From a virus: a DNA stretch of 39,563 nt. The position numbers and the translations under genes were made by a program. Below the pieces are notes generated by a model. It was not told where the DNA came from and did no database searches. It saw only the letters and a program-made list of their open reading frames with translations. The DNA lies in UHGV virus genome UHGV-0170560. The stretch is one strand, 5' to 3'. This document shows positions 3,316 through 35,959 of this stretch, one piece after another (position 1 is the first letter of the stretch; the number at the start of each line of letters is the position of its first letter).

Positions 3316-5901
3316 TTACATCTGGTTATTAATTTTCATTTCAATATTTTTAATGCGCTCAACCAATCCTCGCATAATGAAACGATCAAGTTCTTGATCG
3401 CGGAATTGCCACAAATCTCCTGCTTTCTTAACTAATTTTTTTTCACCAGTATTCACAGGAACAATGAATTTTTCACCATTTTGATCCGTAATTAACTCAT
3501 CTTTAATGACATCTTCATATACATCATCCCATTTGTCATACCCTATAAATCCATAATCTCGCCAGTCCAGGCCCTCATCCTCTAAAACAGCAATAACTGC
3601 CTGAACAGTGGTGCCAGAGTGCAACCTTTTAGAATCATCATCAATCCATGTCCAGAAACCTAGCAGATCAGCCACTTTAATTGCTGCATTAATTTCAGAT
3701 TTGGTGAATCCGCGAATCGGGTCTTTAAGACGACCATCTGAACTTGACTGGGTTCCTCCGGCAAAATAACCAATGTTATATCGTAGTGATGCGCTACCTA
3801 TATTTGAAGTGGCATCAGCTCCAGGAGTGATTCCCCCTGATGTTGCTATTTGCATTGCTGGAGTAGATCCAGACCCATCAGGTCTGAACTGTAATTGACC
3901 TACACTGTTGTATTGTGTTCTCATGAACCAAGATGTAGCATTGCCATTACTGAGCAGGCCAAGAATAGCATCAGAACCAGATGGAGCCGATACAGTGTAC
4001 ATTCCTGTCTTAGTGAGTGACGTCATGGTTTTTCCATCCTTGCTGACCAATAGTCTGTCGGAGCTTGCATCCATCATCACTTTCCATCCTGTAGACCCAT
4101 CAGCAGCATTCTTCGTAAACTGAATTGATGCGTCACCAATATTCCCATCAGAGCCAAGAATTGCAACGGTATAACCGCCTGCTGGGTCTTTACCCACAAC
4201 TCCAAATCTACCGTTTAGCGGATCGCCTGAAACTATTATTTTTACAGGAATCACTCCGGCAAAATTGTCATTAAATATCTGAGAAATATAATTCATGCGC
4301 ATGCCATAAAAACTAACACCTCTCTTTACATTCTCAGAACCAATAAAAGTCGGAATATCTGAATTTGTAATACCATAAGGTGATTGCTCTACCACACCAC
4401 CATAAAACTGGATGTTGGATGCGTGATCAAATTCTAATGCATGATTAGCTCTGGTTCTAAACTCACAGCCATAAAAGTAATGCCCATTTATTTCAGCGGA
4501 TGTCGCATTAACATCACCATCTATATAAAGGCATCGCCATGTGTTTGCGCTAGAGTAATAAGAAACAAGCTCTTCATGAGACATTGATGCGCGACTGTGG
4601 TGATCAAGGGTATAAATACCACATTTATCTACTCTAGTTCCGCTGAGACCATAACTTGCAGGCCCAGTGTTTGAACCAAGAATTGCTAAACCGACTCGCC
4701 CCATAGTTGACCCACCAGTAATGGTATTGTAATCAGGGTCATCGTTTCCTTGCTTTGACTGAATTATTGTACCTGCTTTTGAAAAGTATCCGAATACACA
4801 AACATCCTCCTGAAGATTTCTTGCAGAGTCATCGTAATAAACCCCACACTCATAATCTGCACGTTGGTCTTCATCAGGTTTTGTGTGATTACCGATGGAA
4901 TCATAACAAATCATGTCTTGAACCACGGCAATGCCTTTAAGGACAGATCCACTTGAACCATATTCTGGAGAAAGAACTCTCACGCAATATCGAACACTTG
5001 CGAAATGATCGTCTCTGTTATCTGTAGTAGCTATCTTTGTTCCTGCTCCAGAAAATATAAACGTAGCACCAGGCATATTTTCTTTTCTACCTTCAGCAAG
5101 AAAGAATTTGTCATCATCAGTACCAAATCCAAGAACAGGAGAACCATTACCAATGAATCGAAAATCACCAGGTATTTCTATACCATCAGAGAATCGATAA
5201 ACCCCATCAGGAACAAAAAAAGTTTTCTTTCCAGATGCAAGCAAAGCCTGCCACTGCGTTAAGTTGTCCGTTTTATAGTCACCTTTTAATCCAAAATCGG
5301 TTATGCTGACTGTATCTCGCATCTTATCCTGGAACGTTCGATATATCGCACCAGAACCATACTGAATAAACCAACCAAAACCACCAACAACTCCGGCGAT
5401 TGCAGCATCAACATAATTACGCATTGAGCGATTATTTACAGCATCCTGCTCAAGTGATGGATCTGCAAGGTTAGAAATTCTGTTTTGCTTTGCATCGTAA
5501 TATTTTGCAAGCAAAGATGGTTTCATCAATGCACGTCTGAACCACCCAAAACATTGCTGGATCAGCATCGTCAGGTAGTCAAAAGCATCTTCATGCACTT
5601 CGGGGAAAAATTTTCCCTGATTGCGAAGGTCTGTCTCCTGCACTACATCAAGCACACGATCTATCGTAATTCGCCATCCAGCAGCAAGCGGCGACGGAAG
5701 AACAACAGAACCGCCACTATAAGTGCCCGCCCCAGTTACCGTATAACCGGTATCCAGAACCAATTCTGTTACGTTCCCGTTCAGGTCAGACACCTGAACA
5801 ACCAGGTCGGATTTTTTGAAAATACGGAAGGTATACGGAAATGATGTCGTAGCGCCGTTACCGGTGTATTCGTTGTGGTCAACTTCGGTTGAGACCGTCA
5901 T
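3316..5901 (-). CDS. Tail fibre/tailspike with T7 gp17-like N-terminal adaptor domain and C-terminal intramolecular chaperone (peptidase S74-like) domain
   Basis: 861 aa; N-terminal ~110 aa resemble the T7 gp17 adaptor region by recollection; C-terminal ~140 aa begin with SSDGRLKD (S-D-x-R-x-K autoprocessing motif); central part AT-rich. Confidence 0.8.
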   Translation of the reverse strand: MTVSTEVDHNEYTGNGATTSFPYTFRIFKKSDLVVQVSDLNGNVTELVLDTGYTVTGAGTYSGGSVVLPSPLAAGWRITIDRVLDVVQETDLRNQGKFFPEVHEDAFDYLTMLIQQCFGWFRRALMKPSLLAKYYDAKQNRISNLADPSLEQDAVNNRSMRNYVDAAIAGVVGGFGWFIQYGSGAIYRTFQDKMRDTVSITDFGLKGDYKTDNLTQWQALLASGKKTFFVPDGVYRFSDGIEIPGDFRFIGNGSPVLGFGTDDDKFFLAEGRKENMPGATFIFSGAGTKIATTDNRDDHFASVRYCVRVLSPEYGSSGSVLKGIAVVQDMICYDSIGNHTKPDEDQRADYECGVYYDDSARNLQEDVCVFGYFSKAGTIIQSKQGNDDPDYNTITGGSTMGRVGLAILGSNTGPASYGLSGTRVDKCGIYTLDHHSRASMSHEELVSYYSSANTWRCLYIDGDVNATSAEINGHYFYGCEFRTRANHALEFDHASNIQFYGGVVEQSPYGITNSDIPTFIGSENVKRGVSFYGMRMNYISQIFNDNFAGVIPVKIIVSGDPLNGRFGVVGKDPAGGYTVAILGSDGNIGDASIQFTKNAADGSTGWKVMMDASSDRLLVSKDGKTMTSLTKTGMYTVSAPSGSDAILGLLSNGNATSWFMRTQYNSVGQLQFRPDGSGSTPAMQIATSGGITPGADATSNIGSASLRYNIGYFAGGTQSSSDGRLKDPIRGFTKSEINAAIKVADLLGFWTWIDDDSKRLHSGTTVQAVIAVLEDEGLDWRDYGFIGYDKWDDVYEDVIKDELITDQNGEKFIVPVNTGEKKLVKKAGDLWQFRDQELDRFIMRGLVERIKNIEMKINNQM

Positions 5902-6059
5902 GTTAAATCTCCAGATAGTCGCAGCACCCGTTGCGCCGCATATCTGGTTATTCTATTACCTGAAAAACCACATATGGATAGATAACCCATAAATACGAAA
6001 AGATATTACCTTTCAGGTGATTTGCAAAACGTGCTGGATAGCAAACAAATTATTTGATA

Positions 6060-6075
6060 CTGTATATTTATACAG
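6060..6075 (+). promoter_or_regulatory. LexA (SOS) box
   Basis: CTGTATATTTATACAG = CTGT-N8-ACAG with AT-rich spacer, flanked TA..TT, about 20 nt upstream of the 6097 start codon. Confidence 0.65.
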
Positions 6076-6096
6076 TTATTGCATGGAGAAGATAAG

Positions 6097-6354
6097 ATGC
6101 AGCAGTATCACTATCCACTGGAAGACGGATTTACCGAAAGGATTCACACGCCGGGAGGCGTCAGATCACTGGTGGAGGGATCGCACTTGATGAAATTACT
6201 CCGGGATCTCGATAAGGATGGATTTAATGTCGATGGCCCACTTGCCGAACTGACTGCACTGATTAACTACGTCACCAGCTCACAGATGTCTATGCGGGAT
6301 CTGCAAACACATCTCGACTATTGTGCCGAACAATTACGAAAACAAACCAGATAA
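6097..6354 (+). CDS. Small protein paralogous to the C-terminal domain of the downstream antirepressor
   Basis: 85 aa from ATG with GGAGAA RBS (track ORF begins at an upstream TTG); aligns with the last ~65 aa of the 6670..7380 protein (shared pattern IH.P.GV..L.E.S.LM.LL..L..DG..V.G..AELT....Y.......RD.QTH..Y). Confidence 0.6.
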   Translation: MQQYHYPLEDGFTERIHTPGGVRSLVEGSHLMKLLRDLDKDGFNVDGPLAELTALINYVTSSQMSMRDLQTHLDYCAEQLRKQTR

Positions 6355-6490
6355 GGTTTGCAATTACCAAGTGGAGTGCTTATATTTACCTTTGAGGTGA
6401 ATTTACATCGCACTCCTCTTATGCCATAGTAATCGGGCACTGGCAAAATCCAGTGCCGGGATTGGCGTCCCGGGTTACTAAGTGGCGCAT

Positions 6491-6514
6491 ACCACGCCAG
6501 ACGTGGTTTTTTTA
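6491..6514 (+). terminator. Rho-independent terminator-like hairpin
   Basis: Stem ACCACG/CGTGGT with loop CCAGA followed by TTTTTTT. Confidence 0.6.
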
Positions 6515-6669
6515 TGCGTTAAGCACAGCTATATCCGAATTATGGTGGGCTGGGCAGGGGTCCGAAAGGACGCCGGTACCACTTAGGCCGGTACGCCAAC
6601 CTTGTCCAGTTCACCACCAGTAATTGGCGTTGCGGTGGTGATTAAAATCACTAAGTGGAGATAACCACC

Positions 6670-7380
6670 ATGGCTAATGCTCAAACTGCCATCTTCAAAT
6701 TTGAATCTGTTAACCCTATCCGTTCCATCATTATCGATGGCCAACCATGGTTTGTAGCCCAAGACGTTTGTAGTGCGCTGCGTATCCAAAACGTCACCCA
6801 AGCACTTGAAAAACTGGATGATGATGAAAGGTCTATGTTCAACATAGGGCATGAACATCGTGCAATTTTTGACAGCCGAGTAAAAGAGATCAACATCATC
6901 TCCGAGTCAGGCCTCTACACACTGATCCTCCGCTGCCGCGACGCAGTGACACCAGGCACTATCCCCTACCGCTTTCGTAAATGGGTTACAGGTGAGGTTC
7001 TTCCTCAGATCCGCCGCACCGGAAGTTACATTAAAAACTCGCTCCCGCAGGAAGAACGCATAAAGATGGTTGCCGACCAGGTAGCCAACGCCACGGCGTC
7101 AGCAGTAATGCAGGCGATGAAGATAGAGAACAAAACCTACAGCGCCCCGCTGCAGCCCGGCTACCGCAGCCTGATTCACTCGCCGTCTGGTGTTCTCGGC
7201 CTGACGGAGAACTCACTGCTGATGAATCTGCTGAACCAGTTACAGGACGACGGGCACGACGTATCGGGCGCGGCGGCGGAGCTGACCACCATGTTCTGCT
7301 ACATCGTCGGTGTGAGTAAATGCCTGCGTGATATCCAGACCCACGCGGAATACATCAACGACAAGGCAGGGTTCTTCTGA
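6670..7380 (+). CDS. Antirepressor (Bro-N domain protein)
   Basis: 236 aa from ATG preceded by GGAG; N-terminal Bro-N hallmarks (WFVAQDVCSAL, ISESGLYTLIL, FRKWVTGEVLPQIRRTGSY). Confidence 0.8.
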   Translation: MANAQTAIFKFESVNPIRSIIIDGQPWFVAQDVCSALRIQNVTQALEKLDDDERSMFNIGHEHRAIFDSRVKEINIISESGLYTLILRCRDAVTPGTIPYRFRKWVTGEVLPQIRRTGSYIKNSLPQEERIKMVADQVANATASAVMQAMKIENKTYSAPLQPGYRSLIHSPSGVLGLTENSLLMNLLNQLQDDGHDVSGAAAELTTMFCYIVGVSKCLRDIQTHAEYINDKAGFF

Positions 7381-7504
7381 CGGGCGGCGGCACAGGGATG
7401 TGCCTTTAAATAATTCTGTACGATTGCAGACAGGGGGGTGAATAGAGTACTATTACCTTACGGGTGATCCATAGCGATTAGGCACCGATACAGGAGGAGC
7501 CCAC

Positions 7505-7537
7505 ATGAGAAAATTTGACGAGTACGAAGGCGTTTAA
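7505..7537 (+). CDS. Possible 10-codon leader peptide (MRKFDEYEGV)
   Basis: Strong RBS CAGGAGGAG 5-8 nt upstream; located between an operator-like palindrome and a terminator hairpin; too short to call confidently. Confidence 0.25.
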   Translation: MRKFDEYEGV

Positions 7538-7555
7538 CATTCGGATAGTTTAATG

Positions 7556-7579
7556 ACGGGGCCATTAGGCCCCGTTTTC
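7556..7579 (+). terminator. Rho-independent terminator / possible attenuator
   Basis: Stem ACGGGGCC/GGCCCCGT with loop ATTA followed by TTTT; immediately upstream of the 7597 gene. Confidence 0.6.
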
Positions 7580-7596
7580 ATGTCTGGAGACAGTTT

Positions 7597-8136
7597 GTGT
7601 TAAGTGAAGAAATGCAATTTGCCATGGCTGTGGCTCAAATCGTAAGTGCAGTCGCGGTTTCGCTTGGCTTGTTCATAGCTATCGCTACTATTATTTATAA
7701 TGTAAATACAGCGAGAAAAGTACACACTTCAGTATTCCTTGGTGAAAGCAGGTTTGATGTAGATTATAAGAAAGGCCTATCTACTATGCGCCGCATTCAC
7801 GAATCGAACAAATCATTCCGCTCTTATATGTATCCAAGCAATGGGCAGGCTGATCTTACGGATGAAGAAAAGATAGAGAAGAGAGAAATAATTTACTGTC
7901 TAGGTTTCTACGAACGCATGGCTGTGAGCGTGAAGCGGAAAACTTATGATGAGACCATGATTAAGGAAGTATTTTACAGCTCCGTTGTAAATAACTATCA
8001 GATTGCGCTACCTCTTATACAAGCTATTAGAGAAAAAGAAAACATAAACACATATTTTAAAGAATATGAATGGTTGGCAACACGATGGAAGGATTGTCCA
8101 TTGAAGGATAAATCCCCATGGTACAAGTTTTGGTAA
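7597..8136 (+). CDS. Membrane-anchored accessory protein; candidate superinfection-exclusion/defence protein
   Basis: 179 aa, GTG start with GGAG RBS; N-terminal TM helix; markedly AT-rich relative to the structural genes; position matches the P22 immI/sieA neighbourhood next to the tailspike. Confidence 0.55.
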   Translation: MLSEEMQFAMAVAQIVSAVAVSLGLFIAIATIIYNVNTARKVHTSVFLGESRFDVDYKKGLSTMRRIHESNKSFRSYMYPSNGQADLTDEEKIEKREIIYCLGFYERMAVSVKRKTYDETMIKEVFYSSVVNNYQIALPLIQAIREKENINTYFKEYEWLATRWKDCPLKDKSPWYKFW

Positions 8137-8914: not shown

Positions 8915-11389
8915 TTATTGCGGAGTGACATCCTGAGGTCGCCACCAGTATGTCTGATTAAACTCTTTCTTCGAACGTTGCTCCATTTTACGCAAATAGC
9001 CTGGTGAAAAATACTCCTGCATCTGGTTAAAGATCATATGATCGAGAGCCGCCTTTAAGTACCAGAGATTCGCACCTGGCATCAAACCTTTCCCCAGCTT
9101 CACCAGATCACCACCAGTCTGCTCACTCTTCCCTTCCACAGCATTTAACGGTATGCCCTGAGCAATCTTCACTACGTCATCAACCAGACCAGCTACCGGG
9201 CCAAGCATCGACGCCAGCGCGCCGCTTCCGTACCTAGTGTGATCTGACAATAAAAAGTCACCGTAAAGGCCAAGGCCACCACCTTTCAGTAGAGCACCAA
9301 GCCAGAATTTTGCGGCACCTTCTCCTGTCATCTCTCGAGGATTACGACCAGACGCAAGGTCGTTAAGTTGCTGCGACAAAGCGCCAAGAATGGTCGTACT
9401 GGCAATAAACGTCGCAATATATGCCGCACGCCCACCAGCAGACGGCATACTCATAGCGCGTGACCAGTGACGCATAACAACCGAGATAGGGAACGATTTA
9501 AACAGGAAAACACTTCTCGTTAATTCACCTTTCCATGTTCCACGCTGAATACCAGAACCGGTTATCAGTTGCTCACGTGCTCCCGGTGTAATAATAGCCA
9601 TATCAACTTCTTCAGTTACGGCACCGAGCAGTTTACGCATTGCCTCAAATTTCACTCGTTCAGGCTCACCAAGATGTTTAACTGCTGAATCAGGGATACG
9701 CATAATGCTTTCCGGTGTCAGCATCGTATTATTACCGTTCCCCCAGTCCTCCTGTTGCGCCAGCTTCCATACGCTCCAGTCTGTGTCAGTAATCCCTTTG
9801 CTTTTCAGGATACGAAAATCAGAGTCATCGAGGCTACGAAGGTCTGGTGTCCGTGACACTACTTCTCCCAGGCTTCCCATCATGGTTACGCCATAGGCGC
9901 GCTTGTGCGCATCTGACCATGCTGTAAGCCCACTGGCACGCATTACCGCCGTTGCCGCCCAACGAGACACAGACGGCCCCATATTATCCATCGCCCAGCG
10001 GTTAACGCTGCCAAGTAGAGATTCCATCGCCAGGCCAGCGCGGCGCGCCCGCGCAAGCTCAGTACGGTTCGTTGGGTCCATAGCTTCAAGCTGGTTGCGA
10101 AATAACTGGTTCATTGGAAGGTTGGTAACCTTCGCAGACAGATACATGGTTCCAAGATCAGAGAACGATGACAGCAACGCGGATCCGAGTCTGCTGGCAA
10201 CCAGCCAGTTGCGGATATTGTCAGACCATCGCGCGATGTGCGGATTCGCTACAGGCTGTGTTTTTCCGGAAATAAAGTTGTACAGATTCTCTGTGTTGTT
10301 CGCCAGCCGCTCGACTTTACCGGTTTTACTCGGGTTAGCTGTTGCCGTTTCTGCCTTAACCTGATCAAGAAGGGAGCGGAAAACATGATCGGGGTTTGGG
10401 CCATATGTTTCCACCAGCGCAATATCTTTACTGATACCTTCCAGGTGACCGACCATGATTTCCCATAGAGAGCGATCGCCATAAAGTTGCTGATATTGCA
10501 GATAGGAATCTGCATCTTTGAAATGTATCTGTCGTGATGCATTACCACGGTTAGCACGTACGCCGGAAATTCGCATTCCGGTATCAGTAAGCTTATTCAG
10601 CCCACCAGTAGCGATCGTGTTATAAGCCTCTCCAAGAAATGCAGACAACTCGGCATCGTTCATCAGTTGTCCATCGGCTCGGGTATAATATTTGCGATCC
10701 AGCTTACCTATAACATCGCTAACCCATTTATCTTTTGATACCGCCCCAACCTTTTCCATAGAATGATGTTGAGGGATCCCCCAGTTTTCGAGATAGCCAA
10801 TGTCCCCACCAGCATCATTAAACCGGCGGCGCAGTAGATCTGTCACTTCTCTCCACGCCTTAGCACCTTTTCTTGCTTTAGCATTGCCAGTATTTTGCCC
10901 TCGCATTTCATATACCAGGTCACGCACGCCCGCTTCATCTTCAAACAGGCCAAAAAAGCGAGGATCAACTGCTTCAAATGCCTCCTGCAATTGACTCAAT
11001 GCATAATCACGAGTGGCTTTTGTTCTGGATTCAACAGAGAGGAAATTCGATTTACCGTCTGCATTAAAAGCAATAGTACGGTTAAGAGCGCCAAGTTTCC
11101 CATCAGCCCCTTGATAGCTATTGATAAATTTATCCAATCTCTGACGTGCGGCTATAGTGAGGGCCACACGACGTTTCTTTAATGCCGCTTCTCGCTGTAA
11201 TTCTTCAGATGCCAATTGTGCTGCACGATACAACCGTTCTGATTCGGAAAGTTGTCGCCACGACATCGGGTCATCACGAGCAATGGAGCGCATATTTCGA
11301 TAAATGCGGTCTTCAATGTTCTGTATTTCTCGCGCCGTTAACGTGCGCTGCGCCGCCTGCTGGACCGCTTGTATACATTCCTGTCTCAT
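8915..11389 (-). CDS. Internal virion/ejection protein (T7 gp16-like position)
   Basis: 824 aa; translationally coupled within the long minus-strand virion operon. Confidence 0.65.
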   Translation of the reverse strand: MRQECIQAVQQAAQRTLTAREIQNIEDRIYRNMRSIARDDPMSWRQLSESERLYRAAQLASEELQREAALKKRRVALTIAARQRLDKFINSYQGADGKLGALNRTIAFNADGKSNFLSVESRTKATRDYALSQLQEAFEAVDPRFFGLFEDEAGVRDLVYEMRGQNTGNAKARKGAKAWREVTDLLRRRFNDAGGDIGYLENWGIPQHHSMEKVGAVSKDKWVSDVIGKLDRKYYTRADGQLMNDAELSAFLGEAYNTIATGGLNKLTDTGMRISGVRANRGNASRQIHFKDADSYLQYQQLYGDRSLWEIMVGHLEGISKDIALVETYGPNPDHVFRSLLDQVKAETATANPSKTGKVERLANNTENLYNFISGKTQPVANPHIARWSDNIRNWLVASRLGSALLSSFSDLGTMYLSAKVTNLPMNQLFRNQLEAMDPTNRTELARARRAGLAMESLLGSVNRWAMDNMGPSVSRWAATAVMRASGLTAWSDAHKRAYGVTMMGSLGEVVSRTPDLRSLDDSDFRILKSKGITDTDWSVWKLAQQEDWGNGNNTMLTPESIMRIPDSAVKHLGEPERVKFEAMRKLLGAVTEEVDMAIITPGAREQLITGSGIQRGTWKGELTRSVFLFKSFPISVVMRHWSRAMSMPSAGGRAAYIATFIASTTILGALSQQLNDLASGRNPREMTGEGAAKFWLGALLKGGGLGLYGDFLLSDHTRYGSGALASMLGPVAGLVDDVVKIAQGIPLNAVEGKSEQTGGDLVKLGKGLMPGANLWYLKAALDHMIFNQMQEYFSPGYLRKMEQRSKKEFNQTYWWRPQDVTPQ

Positions 11390-20949: not shown

Positions 20950-21000
20950 CTTCTTTCTCCATTAGTGGGTCTGTTACGACCCACAGGTTAATAACAGGCG

Positions 21001-25320: not shown

Positions 25321-25397
25321 GTGGCATTAGCTCAGTTGGACAGAGCAACCGCCTTCTAAGCGGTTGGCCGCAGGTTCGAATCCTGCATGCCACGCCA
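25321..25397 (+). tRNA. tRNA-Arg (anticodon UCU), CCA encoded
   Basis: Hand-folded cloverleaf: acceptor GTGGCAT/ATGCCAC, D-stem GCTC/GAGC, anticodon stem ACCGC/GCGGT with loop CTTCTAA, T-stem GCAGG/CCTGC with TTCGAAT loop; argU-like. Confidence 0.9.
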
Positions 25398-25637: not shown

Positions 25638-25820
25638 ATGACTGACCAGGTTTATGATTTAACTAAAATTACCGAGATTGAACAGACTAACGATGCGCAA
25701 AGAGCAAACTTCCTTTTAGGAAGCGGATGGGTATTACTCAAGGTAACTGAAACGCAATTCCATGATAACTATGGTGCTTTAAAAGCAGACGTGGTTTTCA
25801 CATTAGGCAATCCACAGTAA
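25638..25820 (+). CDS. Hypothetical small protein (moron)
   Basis: 60 aa, AGGAGG RBS, followed by a hairpin at 25829-25851. Confidence 0.5.
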   Translation: MTDQVYDLTKITEIEQTNDAQRANFLLGSGWVLLKVTETQFHDNYGALKADVVFTLGNPQ

Positions 25821-34836: not shown

Positions 34837-35067
34837 TCATGAGTAGAAGAAGTATGCCAGTTCTGCTTTTGAGCGCAGCCATTGTCTTGTTTTACAGGCT
34901 TTAAAAAGCCCATTCATCAATACTTTACCTGGCATTTTGCGCTTACCTGTTAAGTGAGTCTGGATATAGTGACTCGTCGTTCCGGCTTCCTGTGCGAAGG
35001 CTTCACGCTCATCCGGAGTAAGTGCAAGCCAGTGCTTTTTGAAATCGAAATGTCCGTTATCGCTCAT
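34837..35067 (-). CDS. Cro-like HTH regulator
   Basis: 76 aa with HTH-like segment EAFAQEAGTTSHYIQTHLTG; divergent from the repressor gene across an operator-rich intergenic region. Confidence 0.55.
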   Translation of the reverse strand: MSDNGHFDFKKHWLALTPDEREAFAQEAGTTSHYIQTHLTGKRKMPGKVLMNGLFKACKTRQWLRSKAELAYFFYS

Positions 35068-35103: not shown

Positions 35104-35166
35104 TCACCCATAAGGTAACAAAAATCAAGGATAGTTACCTATGGGGTGCATTTACCTGTTGGGTAA
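35104..35166. promoter_or_regulatory. Three adjacent operator-like palindromes in the repressor/cro intergenic region
   Basis: TCACC-CATAA-GGTAA (35104-35118), TTACC-TATGG-GGTGC (35135-35149), TTACC-TGTTG-GGTAA (35152-35166). Confidence 0.6.
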
Positions 35167-35221: not shown

Positions 35222-35806
35222 ATGAAAAGTATCCAGGACGTCCGCAGGCAAAATCTCAACGACTTGATCGACCGTGAATTCAATGGTGTTCAGACGCGGA
35301 TGGCAGAAAAACTTGGAACTCAGGCAAATCTGGTAAACCGCTGGGCTCTTGGCAAGAAGGTTATCGGCGACCAGGTTGCGCGAAAAATTGAAGCTGCCGC
35401 CAATAAACCACGTAACTGGCTTGATATCGATCGCTCGCTTTCTCAGGAAGGTTTTCAGCCTGTCGGCCCAAGCGACATTGGTCAGCTGGCGGCTCACAAC
35501 CTGGAACGCTGGATGAGCGAAAGCCGCGACCTTTCAACACAGGGAAAACTTCACCGCGCATCCGGCGTCGCCCAGGTGACAATCAGCCGCCTGTTAAACA
35601 ATGAGGTCAGCGTTTCCATTTCCACCCTGGAGAATGTTGCATCTGCATTCGGGCGTCACGGATATGAATTACTGATTCACCCGCACGACCCCGCGACTAT
35701 CAACTATGACCGCTCGCGCTACGCATTGTTACCTGAAACAGAGAAGGCAAAGATCGAAAGTTACATTGAATTTGTCATCAACCAGAACGAAAAAAGCAAA
35801 CAATAA
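35222..35806 (+). CDS. CI-like repressor without recognisable S24 autocleavage domain
   Basis: 194 aa with two HTH-like segments; no Ser/Lys peptidase-type C-terminal motifs recognised. Confidence 0.6.
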   Translation: MKSIQDVRRQNLNDLIDREFNGVQTRMAEKLGTQANLVNRWALGKKVIGDQVARKIEAAANKPRNWLDIDRSLSQEGFQPVGPSDIGQLAAHNLERWMSESRDLSTQGKLHRASGVAQVTISRLLNNEVSVSISTLENVASAFGRHGYELLIHPHDPATINYDRSRYALLPETEKAKIESYIEFVINQNEKSKQ

Positions 35807-35850: not shown

Positions 35851-35959
35851 ATTGCCCATGAAATTACCTTACGGGTAATTTTTTTAACTCATATCTATTG
35901 ACATCAAACCAAATACGAATAATCATTACCTCAACAGTAACAAGCCGAGGTAACAAGTT

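Follow-up and report, generated by a model that had tools for sequence, protein, structure and literature searches.

A LexA-controlled antirepressor gene and an adjoining isrK/C4 RNA cassette predicted in a temperate Escherichia coli podophage

The module and its setting

The window examined here is a stretch of 39,563 nucleotides, UHGV-0170560, from a temperate E. coli podophage of the phiV10/epsilon15-like kind (Uetakevirus). On either side of a plus-strand regulatory module lie minus-strand genes, one for the tailspike (3316-5901) and one for a structural protein of the virion (8915-11389). This is the setting given for it by the original prediction, which was made from the sequence alone and placed it between internal virion genes and a tail fibre gene. 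The module comprises two protein genes and, between them, two RNA genes:

6097-6354, plus strand: ant, encoding an 85-residue antirepressor, orthologue of SPC32H Ant (PDB 5D50_E, E 1.4e-46)
6437-6513, plus strand: isrK small RNA (Rfam RF01394, 67.7 bits against a gathering threshold of 50)
6538-6621, plus strand: C4 antisense RNA (Rfam RF01695, full length, 66 bits against a gathering threshold of 45)
6670-7380, plus strand: gene for a 236-residue Bro-N::Ant fusion protein (Pfam Bro-N, E 9.7e-20, with an Ant-like C-terminus)

The module was matched in 534 of 5,426 complete E. coli genomes. The isrK/C4/Bro-N::Ant cassette downstream of ant is an optional, accessory part of it that is mosaic among relatives: the whole Bro-N block is missing from SPC32H, epsilon15, BUCT554 and PAS61, and in the Salmonella relatives, SPC32H included, ant stands alone, with either the next gene or a terminator after it.

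The small antirepressor and its LexA box

The product of the small gene at 6097-6354 matched chain E of PDB entry 5D50, named 'Anti-repressor protein', with residues 2-84 aligned to residues 3-85 (phmmer). It is ~87% identical to Ant of SPC32H and 98.8% identical to its counterpart in vB_EcoP_ZX5 (ZX5), and tblastn placed homologues in 35 phage records, among them SPC32H and SPC32N, where the orthologue has the GenBank name 'ant: anti-repressor protein'. Ant has no family in Pfam or NCBIfam, belongs in PHROGs to phrog_450 ('unknown function') and is labeled 'hypothetical protein' in RefSeq, and the value of this assignment for annotation lies in the persistence of that label though the module is common in E. 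coli genomes.

6035-6063, plus strand: candidate ant promoter (-35 TGGATA at 6035-6040, 17-nt spacer, -10 TACTGT at 6058-6063)
6058-6077, no strand assigned: LexA (SOS) box TACTGTATATTTATACAGTT, unique in the window and conserved in relatives

A near-perfect SOS box had been predicted at 6060-6075, about 20 nt upstream of the small gene, and the closer analysis bears this out. The core CTGTATATTTATACAG at these positions is part of a 20-mer, TACTGTATATTTATACAGTT, that has two mismatches to the LexA consensus TACTGTATATATATACAGTA (18/20), is the sole match in the window at three or fewer mismatches (0.00 expected, 100 shuffles), and has the form of a CTGT-N8-ACAG palindrome with an AT-rich spacer; the ATG at 6097 begins 21 nt 3' of it. 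The CTGT-N8-ACAG sequences at 20971 and 25512 were rejected on account of their GC-rich spacers, the lack of a nearby regulatory gene and their having more than three mismatches to the consensus. The box is kept, with a variable spacer, in nine relatives, and its position is unchanged in those from E. coli, Salmonella and Enterobacter (e.g., SPC32H and epsilon15); in Klebsiella relatives it is weakened, its left arm reading ATGT. SPC32N differs from SPC32H at only two positions in 5.2 kb, one of which is a C-to-A change within the box that turns ACAG into AAAG (C6073A in the numbering of the window). LexA binding and DNA-damage inducibility are predicted for the box at 6058-6077, with the SPC32N variant and the induction of ZX5 by mitomycin C as indirect evidence.

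A generic sigma-70 promoter scan called no promoter at the LexA box, so we took the -35 and -10 elements of ant from hexamers that are conserved in alignments of the E. coli, Salmonella and Enterobacter relatives and whose flanking bases vary (near-matches in Klebsiella are TGGAAA and TATATG). This conserved TGGATA-17-TACTGT arrangement leads us to suspect that the LexA box overlaps the ant promoter, which is likely. The hexamer TTGATA (6054-6059) was set aside as the -35 of ant, since both it and the matching -10 vary among relatives. We conclude that the gene at 6097-6354 is, by prediction, the LexA-controlled antirepressor itself; the logic of LexA control in the original prediction stands, while its choice of the Bro-N protein as the antirepressor under LexA, with no role given to the small gene, is not supported, the small gene being the one that encodes the orthologue of SPC32H Ant.

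The repressor and its operators

The target expected of Ant is encoded in the immunity region, and sites for it recur in the module:

35222-35806, plus strand: rep, encoding a 194-residue prophage repressor, orthologue of SPC32H Rep (PDB 5D50_A, E 3.5e-42, and 5D4Z)
34837-35067, minus strand: gene for a cro-like early regulator, divergent from rep (PHROG 35, transcriptional repressor, 5.6e-13)
35121-35093, leftward: lytic promoter, TTGTTA-17-TATTAT
35104-35118, 35135-35149 and 35152-35166, no strand assigned: Rep operators of the immunity region (motif scan)
6006-6020, no strand assigned: Rep operator 1, TTACCTTTCAGGTGA, 5' of the ant promoter (motif enrichment)
6386-6400, no strand assigned: Rep operator 2, TTACCTTTGAGGTGA, directly next to the isrK promoter -35 (motif enrichment)
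7453-7467, no strand assigned: Rep operator 3, TTACCTTACGGGTGA, at the boundary of the cassette, 3' of the Bro-N::Ant gene (motif)

Rep aligned over residues 1-190 with the 'Repressor' of PDB 5D50_A/5D4Z. Its identity to SPC32H Rep is moderate by the look of the alignment, though the match is strong, and relative to SPC32H it has diverged much more than Ant; the ZX5 paper reported 42% identity to the epsilon15 repressor (PMC9782041). Profile matches to Rep were HTH families only (Pfam, NCBIfam), and Peptidase_S24 was absent from the matches when the E cutoff was raised to 10 for Pfam and to 1 for NCBIfam, as well as from the alignment to PDB, in agreement with the earlier statement that no LexA-type peptidase C-terminus is recognisable in the repressor at 35222-35806.

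The Rep operator motif, a TTACC-N5-GGT(A/G)A palindrome, is strongly enriched (14 matches against 0.38 expected, or 13 against 1.08 in another scan). The operator at 35104-35118 falls within the leftward lytic promoter, between its -35 and -10, and the three copies inside the module had been missed by the original prediction. Their placement is regular: in relatives the distance from an operator to the LexA box downstream of it is always 54 nt, and the corresponding site upstream of gp19 is annotated as repressor-binding in the epsilon15 GenBank record; operator 2 starts 51 nt upstream of the isrK +1 in all seven cassette-bearing phages (7/7); and ZX5 and TL-2011b have an operator at the place equivalent to operator 3. 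The operators at 6006 and 6386 sit upstream of their -35 elements, where Rep may repress, activate or loop.

Homology, box conservation and operator positions in this phage, taken with Ant-Rep binding and LexA control as published for the orthologues, make it very probable that the induction switch in the window is a Rep/Ant system of the SPC32H type. That induction proceeds by an SOS-derepressed antirepressor rather than by repressor cleavage, as first proposed, gains support from the 5D50 orthologues, the conserved box and the box change in SPC32N.

isrK and C4 RNAs upstream of the Bro-N::Ant gene

The gap at 6355-6669 had been passed over in the original prediction, and it holds two RNAs recognised at the level of Rfam families, with the following elements:

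6402-6430, plus strand: isrK promoter (TTTACA, 17-nt spacer, CATAGT, with TG before the -10; promoter scan)
6462-6468, plus strand: isrK target mimic a1, UUGGCGU, covarying with C4
6478-6485, plus strand: isrK target mimic b1, CUAAGUGG, covarying with C4
6491-6513, plus strand: predicted Rho-independent terminator of isrK (6491-6507 plus T run)
6579-6586, plus strand: C4 b' loop, CCACUUAG (pairing tables)
6593-6599, plus strand: C4 a' segment, ACGCCAA (pairing tables)
6624-6660, plus strand: C4 target on the Bro-N::Ant mRNA (a2 UUGGCGU at 6624-6630, b2 CUAAGUGG at 6651-6658)

The isrK promoter ends 7 nt upstream of the start of the isrK model match, and the pair of isrK and C4 was found again in six relatives. 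The MFE fold of C4 agrees with the expected C4 structure, and its a' and b' segments are perfectly complementary to their targets over 7 bp and 8 bp, respectively. The b2 element overlaps the Shine-Dalgarno GGAG (6657-6660) of the Bro-N::Ant gene, and an overlap with the Shine-Dalgarno region is present in 5/5 specificity types. Across these five types a1/a'/a2 and b1/b'/b2 covary three ways, and pairing across types drops to 4-6 bp for most type pairs. These comparisons used element-wise pairing tables, as full-length RNAduplex of C4 and target ignores intramolecular structure and was uninformative. The 3' end of C4 is the invariant CACCACCA, from which RNase P dependence would be expected.

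Two further candidates in this region were rejected. A third copy of the b element, AAGTGGAG in the ant-isrK spacer (6369-6376), shows no covariation in ZX5 or phiV10. An upstream ORF from a conserved ATG has 14 codons in the window, where it ends in the C4 loop, and over the five types runs to 14, 35, 15, fused and 15 codons; with its reading frame not conserved among them, a coupling ORF like orf45 or icd was dismissed.

The Bro-N::Ant fusion protein

The gene at 6670-7380 was a Bro-N gene in the original prediction as well, and its product has two recognisable parts:

Residues 17-112 (nt 6718-7005, plus strand): Bro-N domain (PF02498, 71.4 bits against a gathering threshold of 25.6)
Residues 155-231 (nt 7132-7362, plus strand): Ant-like domain (BLASTP, 5D50_E)

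The C-terminal homology, which had gone unnoticed, amounts to 43% identity with the phage's own Ant (BLASTP, E 3e-16) and extends to 5D50_E (E 1.6e-13); the Ant-like C-terminus is present in the Bro-N proteins of all relatives. From about residue 85 on, the protein is nearly identical to ZX5 ORF4, and its phiV10 counterpart is truncated by a frameshift. Because the C-terminus is an Ant paralogue and C4 is complementary to the Shine-Dalgarno region, we predict that the Bro-N gene is an optional, RNA-gated second antirepressor gene of the P1 immI or Gifsy-1 isrK-anrP kind. It is no simple member of a LexA operon, as it had been taken to be, since a Rep operator, a separate promoter, the isrK terminator and C4 intervene.

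A proposed two-tier circuit and its alternatives

Ant-Rep binding, LexA binding and RNA pairing in this phage are predictions from homology and covariation, and from them the following course of events may be proposed. In a lysogen, host LexA on the box at 6058-6077 would keep Ant off. DNA damage would lead to RecA-stimulated self-cleavage of LexA and Ant would be made and bind the tandem-HTH Rep, which has no S24 domain and would stay uncleaved; Ant-bound Rep would then leave its TTACC-N5-GGT(A/G)A operators, including that at 35104-35118 in the leftward lytic promoter. Further downstream, pairing of C4 b' with b2 over the Shine-Dalgarno sequence and of a' with a2 would block translation of Bro-N::Ant, as c4 does in P1 and P7. 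Because isrK carries identical copies of both C4 targets (a1 and b1), we infer that it would act as a mimic that titrates C4. No plus-strand terminator is predicted between 6354 and 6491, and because there is none between ant and isrK, LexA-derepressed transcripts should add to the mimic; loss of Rep should also change the activity of the isrK promoter. Bro-N::Ant would thereby serve as a delayed, amplifying second antirepressor. The mimic role would account for trans-activation by IsrK in Gifsy-1, a reading that is ours and not that of the IsrK paper (PMC4825925).

Joined together, these steps would form a two-tier, self-reinforcing feed-forward circuit, in which release of LexA yields Ant and a rise in isrK titrates C4 and frees Bro-N::Ant, and in which the a and b types act as a specificity code for cross-talk among co-resident Uetakevirus prophages. 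We offer the whole of this circuit tentatively, as a scheme that is somewhat unlikely to hold in full.

A real possibility, even if we lean away from it, is that the cassette provides mainly secondary immunity of the immI type at infection, outside SOS induction, such that C4 from a resident prophage shuts off the antirepressor when a phage of its own type enters, whereas a phage of another type escapes and can induce the resident. Its map position, which we take to be like that of P22 immI, would fit such a role, as would its optional, mosaic occurrence and the five covarying RNA types in close relatives with weak cross-pairing between most. A parallel exists in the c4-based heteroimmunity of P1 and P7 (PMC12197685). 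However, the homologous Gifsy-1 cassette contributes to prophage induction (PMC4825925), and the Rep operator fixed 51 nt upstream of isrK, together with the position of the cassette right after ant with no terminator, suggests that it is coupled to the switch. One cassette could serve in both roles.

It is also conceivable, although we think it unlikely, that C4 promotes transcription termination upstream of the Bro-N gene, like the P4 CI RNA with seqA/seqC or the N15 CA RNA, and does not block the ribosome-binding site. The b1 element is directly 5' of the isrK terminator, whose 5' arm contains CCAC (6493-6496), complementary to GUGG (6483-6486); pairing of the two would form a possible anti-terminator that C4 could disrupt; the P4 analogy was raised in the IsrK paper (PMC4825925). 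The position of b2 over the Shine-Dalgarno region in all five types speaks for the ribosome-binding site instead, no such anti-terminator pairing can be seen in sequences of the ZX5 type, and control in Gifsy-1 is mainly translational (139-fold, against 8-fold for transcription, PMC4825925).

Still less probable, in our judgment, is a single LexA-controlled transcript over 6097-7380 in which the antirepressor derepressed by SOS would be the Bro-N protein, with the small protein as an accessory. In ZX5 the Bro-N protein functions as an antirepressor, it has an Ant-like domain, and some read-through from the LexA promoter could cross the terminator-free gap between ant and isrK. Against these points, the small protein is the one that corresponds to a crystallised antirepressor, ant stands alone in the Salmonella relatives including the experimentally studied SPC32H, a terminator, a separate promoter and a Shine-Dalgarno-complementary C4 separate both genes, and the Bro-N::Ant of phiV10 is frameshift-truncated. 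That Rep is inactivated by RecA-stimulated self-cleavage like lambda CI, with the LexA box incidental, is scarcely credible: nothing we found supports it, the mitomycin-inducibility of ZX5 fits both models, an S24 domain is absent at any threshold, the alignment of Rep with its SPC32H orthologue runs from end to end, and the LexA box occurs once in the window, is conserved and has changed in SPC32N.

At its core, the LexA-controlled Ant acting on a non-cleavable Rep adds no new biology, having already been established by genetics and by structure in the same genus. As far as we found, no earlier description exists of a LexA-gated Ant combined with an Ant paralogue that is gated by RNA. If the two-tier reading is true, common prophages would join a trigger made of protein to a gate made of mimic and antisense RNAs, and the module would be a compact model of irreversible, type-specific induction.

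Comparison with known systems

The likeness to P22 immI (mnt-arc-ant-sar) is one of map position only. In the window an Rfam search returned no sar and no RNA family other than isrK, C4 and a tRNA, and no Arc/Mnt ORF was evident in the module from the ORF list and a profile search of part of the small ORFs. Phages with a lambda CI/LexA-type repressor differ in that the Rep of the window is without a C-terminal Peptidase_S24. The LexA-controlled antirepressors 186 Tum, N15 AntC and the Gifsy GfoA/GftA (PMC3121763) are functional analogues and not family members, with no sequence relationship to the window detected, so that the comparison with Gifsy and 186 Tum in the original prediction is sound as analogy, and SPC32H is a much closer, orthologous and experimentally studied relative.

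In the immI region of P1 and P7 (c4-icd-ant), c4 blocks translation of ant at the ribosome-binding site and sets heteroimmunity (PMC12197685). Shared with the window are a C4-family RNA with two exposed segments directed against a ribosome-binding-site target and its upstream duplicate, an antirepressor in the target operon, and sequence types that differ between related phages. The window differs in having no icd-like conserved ORF and in packaging the upstream duplicate as a separate, terminated small RNA (isrK); its antirepressor is unrelated to P1 Ant beyond the general Bro/ANT class, and in place of C1 it has an HTH protein, Rep, as primary repressor.

The isrK-orf45(STnc1160)-anrP region of Gifsy-1 likewise has an isrK with a leaky terminator, a stable C4-like RNA region and an antirepressor-like gene, and there IsrK pairs with orf45/STnc1160 RNA sequence and acts in trans to switch on translation of anrP (PMC4825925). 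Unlike Gifsy-1, where the orf45 frame is needed for translation of the downstream antirepressor, the window does not conserve that frame; its cassette follows a LexA-controlled ant and carries an operator of the resident repressor, and its downstream protein has a C-terminal domain of the SPC32H Ant type.

ZX5 and phiV10 have the same module order as the window, which differs from them in the N-terminal segment of its Bro-N protein and in its C4/isrK specificity type. For ZX5, overexpression of the Bro-N protein ORF4 cut lysogens ~1000-fold, overexpression of its Rep, ORF21, prevented lysis, and with mitomycin C the titre rose from 10^7 to 10^9 (PMC9782041). This only functional paper on E. 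coli relatives credited the Bro-N protein alone, as its sole named anti-repressor, with the small Ant, LexA and the RNAs unmentioned (PMC9782041).

The closest comparison is with SPC32H, which belongs to the same genus, Uetakevirus, and whose Ant and Rep are orthologous to those of the window (PDB 5D50, 5D4Z). In work attributed to Kim & Ryu 2013 (J Virol 87:11775) and Kim et al. 2016 (PNAS 113:E2480), SPC32H Ant reportedly binds Rep and releases it from its operator, LexA is said to control ant, and Rep is said not to be cleaved on SOS induction. The distance from the LexA box to the start of ant is equal in the two phages, the same palindromic operator lies 54 nt upstream of the box, and the map position is likewise adjacent to the tailspike gene. 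The difference is that in SPC32H ant is alone, whereas the window adds the isrK/C4/Bro-N::Ant cassette and two more Rep operators.

A probable LexA-controlled antirepressor in a Uetakevirus genome

The segment 5900-7600 matched phiV10/epsilon15-like podophages of E. coli (genus Uetakevirus), the closest being HEMP4 (98.8%), TL-2011b, vB_EcoP_ZX5 (39,565 bp) and phiV10, and the 39.5-kb length of the window suggests a more or less complete genome of such a phage. The antirepressor module was matched in 534 of 5,426 complete E. coli genomes, with at least 80% of it covered in 212 of these, and is flanked by two genes:

3316-5901, minus strand: tailspike gene
8915-11389, minus strand: virion structural gene

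The small gene of the module (6097-6354, plus strand) encodes an 85-residue protein, Ant, which has no family in Pfam or NCBIfam and matches chain E of PDB 5D50, "Anti-repressor protein" (E 1.4e-46). The prophage repressor, Rep (35222-35806, plus strand), aligns along its entire length with chain A of 5D50 and with 5D4Z, "Repressor" (E 3.5e-42). Both structures come from work on the Rep-Ant complex in Salmonella phage SPC32H, an assignment confirmed by the SPC32H GenBank record and by citing papers. By tblastn, Ant homologues occur in 35 phage records and are annotated "ant: anti-repressor protein" in SPC32H and SPC32N, while the annotation gap elsewhere is evident from PHROG 450 ("unknown function") and RefSeq E. 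coli genomes ("hypothetical protein"). Rep (194 residues) has matches to helix-turn-helix families only, one to HTH_3 (residues 106-147) and a weaker YdaS/Cro-like one (21-61). The original prediction that the repressor has no autocleavage domain was borne out, as Peptidase_S24 was not found in Rep by Pfam profile search even at E up to 10, and NCBIfam at E up to 1 gave only HTH matches. Rep is far more diverged from its Salmonella orthologue than is Ant (about 87% identity), raising the question of how the specificity of Ant is maintained.

The primary studies of SPC32H are those of Kim & Ryu (2013, J Virol 87:11775) and Kim et al. (2016, PNAS 113:E2480); the former reportedly found that SOS induction leaves Rep uncleaved and that the small Ant inactivates it instead, that LexA represses ant, and that Ant is constitutive in SPC32N from one base change in the LexA site. 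Papers citing this work concur on the Ant/Rep mechanism.

An SOS box had also been predicted ahead of the small gene, and we found that CTGTATATTTATACAG (6060-6075) is the core of a 20-mer (6058-6077) matching the LexA consensus TACTGTATATATATACAGTA at 18 of 20 positions, 21 nt 5' of the ant ATG. It is the sole site in the window at three or fewer mismatches, and 100 shuffles yielded none. CTGT-N8-ACAG, with a variable N8 spacer, keeps its spacing to the start of ant in ZX5, phiV10, TL-2011b, PAS61, SPC32H, epsilon15, Tyrion and BUCT554. An alignment of SPC32H with SPC32N over 5,249 bases shows two differences, and one of them is a C-to-A change that turns the right arm of the LexA box from ACAG into AAAG. 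Three Klebsiella Uetakevirus relatives (L007, L008 and L010, at about 2455-2480) retain ant and its upstream operator and have ATGT in place of CTGT in the left arm, a weaker box, and their SOS regulation may be reduced or changed. No promoter was called at the LexA box by a generic scan; the hexamers TGGATA (6035-6040) and TACTGT (6058-6063), with 17 nt between them, recur unchanged among the E. coli, Salmonella and Enterobacter relatives and have near-matches (TGGAAA, TATATG) in the Klebsiella relatives. They form a candidate ant promoter, whose -10 and transcription start the LexA box would cover.

Rep operators

With up to one mismatch allowed, the window holds 14 copies of the motif TTACCTNNNNGGTGA (0.38 expected); the palindrome TTACC-N5-GGTAA is present at 13 sites (1.08 expected). 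Sites and other features noted are:

6006-6020, 6386-6400 and 7453-7467: Rep operators within the module, by motif search
34837-35067, minus strand: cro-like gene, divergent from rep, with three Rep operator sites between the two
25321-25397: tRNA-Arg gene, anticodon UCU (Rfam 73.3 bits, confirmed by ARAGORN)

Of the three sites between the cro-like gene and rep, the one at 35104-35118 occupies the spacer of the leftward promoter, flanked by its -35 and -10, a classical repressing position. In relatives, the equivalent of operator 6006-6020 precedes the LexA box by a constant 54 nt and is marked as a repressor-binding site in the epsilon15 GenBank record. Further palindromes, several intergenic, are found outside the immunity region and ant module (24984, 25594, 28236/28254, 32759/32821 and 35864/35926); one precedes a gene that begins at 25638, and a second overlaps with the -10 of a TTGACA promoter at 35898. 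Rep control may extend to promoters beyond the classical pair.

A second Ant in an optional RNA cassette

The Bro-N gene predicted at 6670-7380 (plus strand) was corroborated by Pfam (Bro-N, 9.7e-20). Residues 155-231 of its product, Bro-N::Ant, align to the phage's own Ant (43% identity, E 3e-16) and to 5D50 chain E (E 1.6e-13). These are the only two Ant-like segments in the window by tblastn, and every Bro-N protein of these cassettes carries such a domain; on sequence grounds, the Bro-N gene thus encodes a second Ant. The phiV10 gene (3768-4447 of locus L002) is frameshifted to 194 residues with loss of most of the Ant-like domain, so that phiV10, the type phage of the group, probably has no working second antirepressor. 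ZX5 ORF4 is nearly identical to Bro-N::Ant from about residue 85 on. The first ~80 residues differ sharply between the window (6670-6920) and ZX5 (3771-4010 of locus L001), and the Bro-N domain seems to contain a mosaic junction. In ZX5, overexpression of ORF4 lowered lysogens about 1000-fold, overexpression of Rep abolished free phage and mitomycin C raised titre 100-fold; that paper makes no mention of LexA or the RNAs and left the small Ant unrecognized (PMC9782041).

Two RNAs, absent from the original prediction, precede the Bro-N gene:

6437-6513: isrK sRNA (Rfam 67.7 bits, gathering score 50)
6491-6507 plus T run: terminator closing isrK
6538-6621: C4 antisense RNA (Rfam 66 bits, gathering score 45)

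The promoter-like sequence TTTACA-17-CATAGT stops 7 nt short of isrK position 1, and a Rep operator starts 51 nt upstream of isrK in every cassette-bearing relative. The isrK and C4 pair is also present in ZX5, phiV10, TL-2011b, Tyrion and two Klebsiella phages. SPC32H, epsilon15, BUCT554 and PAS61 have none of the isrK/C4/Bro-N block, the next gene or a terminator directly following ant, and we therefore consider the block an optional cassette. Operator 7453-7467 is followed by TCCATAGCGATTAGGCAC, which resembles a truncated P_isrK -10 and isrK 5' end (compare 6424-6441), then by an ORF of 10 codons (7506-7538) and, near 7555-7580, by a terminator-like hairpin; the region 7453-7580 may be a recombination scar at the cassette boundary. 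The cargo 3' of the cassette varies, being a DUF4760 protein in the window (7597-8136; Pfam 1.6e-30), a YafO-family toxin in TL-2011b (4903-5252 of locus L011) and hypothetical proteins in ZX5, and the site resembles a moron-like variable slot beside a Rep operator.

The sequence of the C4 loop, CCACUUAG (6579-6586), complements CUAAGUGG (6651-6658); the latter 8-mer overlaps the Bro-N Shine-Dalgarno GGAG and recurs in the single-stranded linker of isrK (6478-6485). A second C4 segment, ACGCCAA (6593-6599), complements UUGGCGU, found both at 6624-6630 and in the loop of isrK hairpin 2 (6462-6468). Over five sequence types (the window; ZX5/phiV10/TL-2011b; Tyrion; Kp-OXA245phi3.2; Kp4865-1) all three copies of each element covary and keep 7-9 bp of pairing, a pattern that speaks strongly, on comparative grounds, for functional pairing.

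Proposed induction pathway and comparison with known systems

LexA would repress ant until SOS removes it, whereupon Ant would be made and inactivate the non-cleavable Rep, allowing lytic promoters to fire; this switch is well supported by orthology. The simplest reading of the cassette, supported by covariation and published homologous cassettes, is that C4 occludes the Shine-Dalgarno region, keeping Bro-N::Ant untranslated, and that isrK is a target mimic that would titrate C4 and relieve the block. No terminator was predicted between ant and isrK, and transcripts made on SOS induction are therefore expected to contribute isrK mimic. With its fixed position, the Rep operator would tie P_isrK to Rep occupancy, by either repression or activation. 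Pairing between different types amounts to only 4-6 bp for most type pairs, and the cassette might, in place of or in addition to a part in induction, confer RNA-type-specific superinfection immunity of the immI kind, a role that we regard as possible but lean against.

The induction logic of the original prediction is thus correct, by orthology to SPC32H Rep/Ant, but the direct target of LexA control is the small Ant and not the Bro-N protein. That logic is already established for this phage genus; the addition to it of an Ant paralogue gated by RNA is a minor novelty assembled from known parts. The C4/target arrangement has the same layout as P1/P7 immI, where c4 blocks ant translation at the ribosome-binding site and determines heteroimmunity (PMC12197685). 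In Gifsy-1, IsrK pairs in trans with the orf45/STnc1160 region and switches on translation of the antirepressor-like AnrP (PMC4825925). The orf45/icd-type coupling reading frame is not conserved in these cassettes, comprising 14 codons in the window and 35, 15, fused and 15 in the other types.
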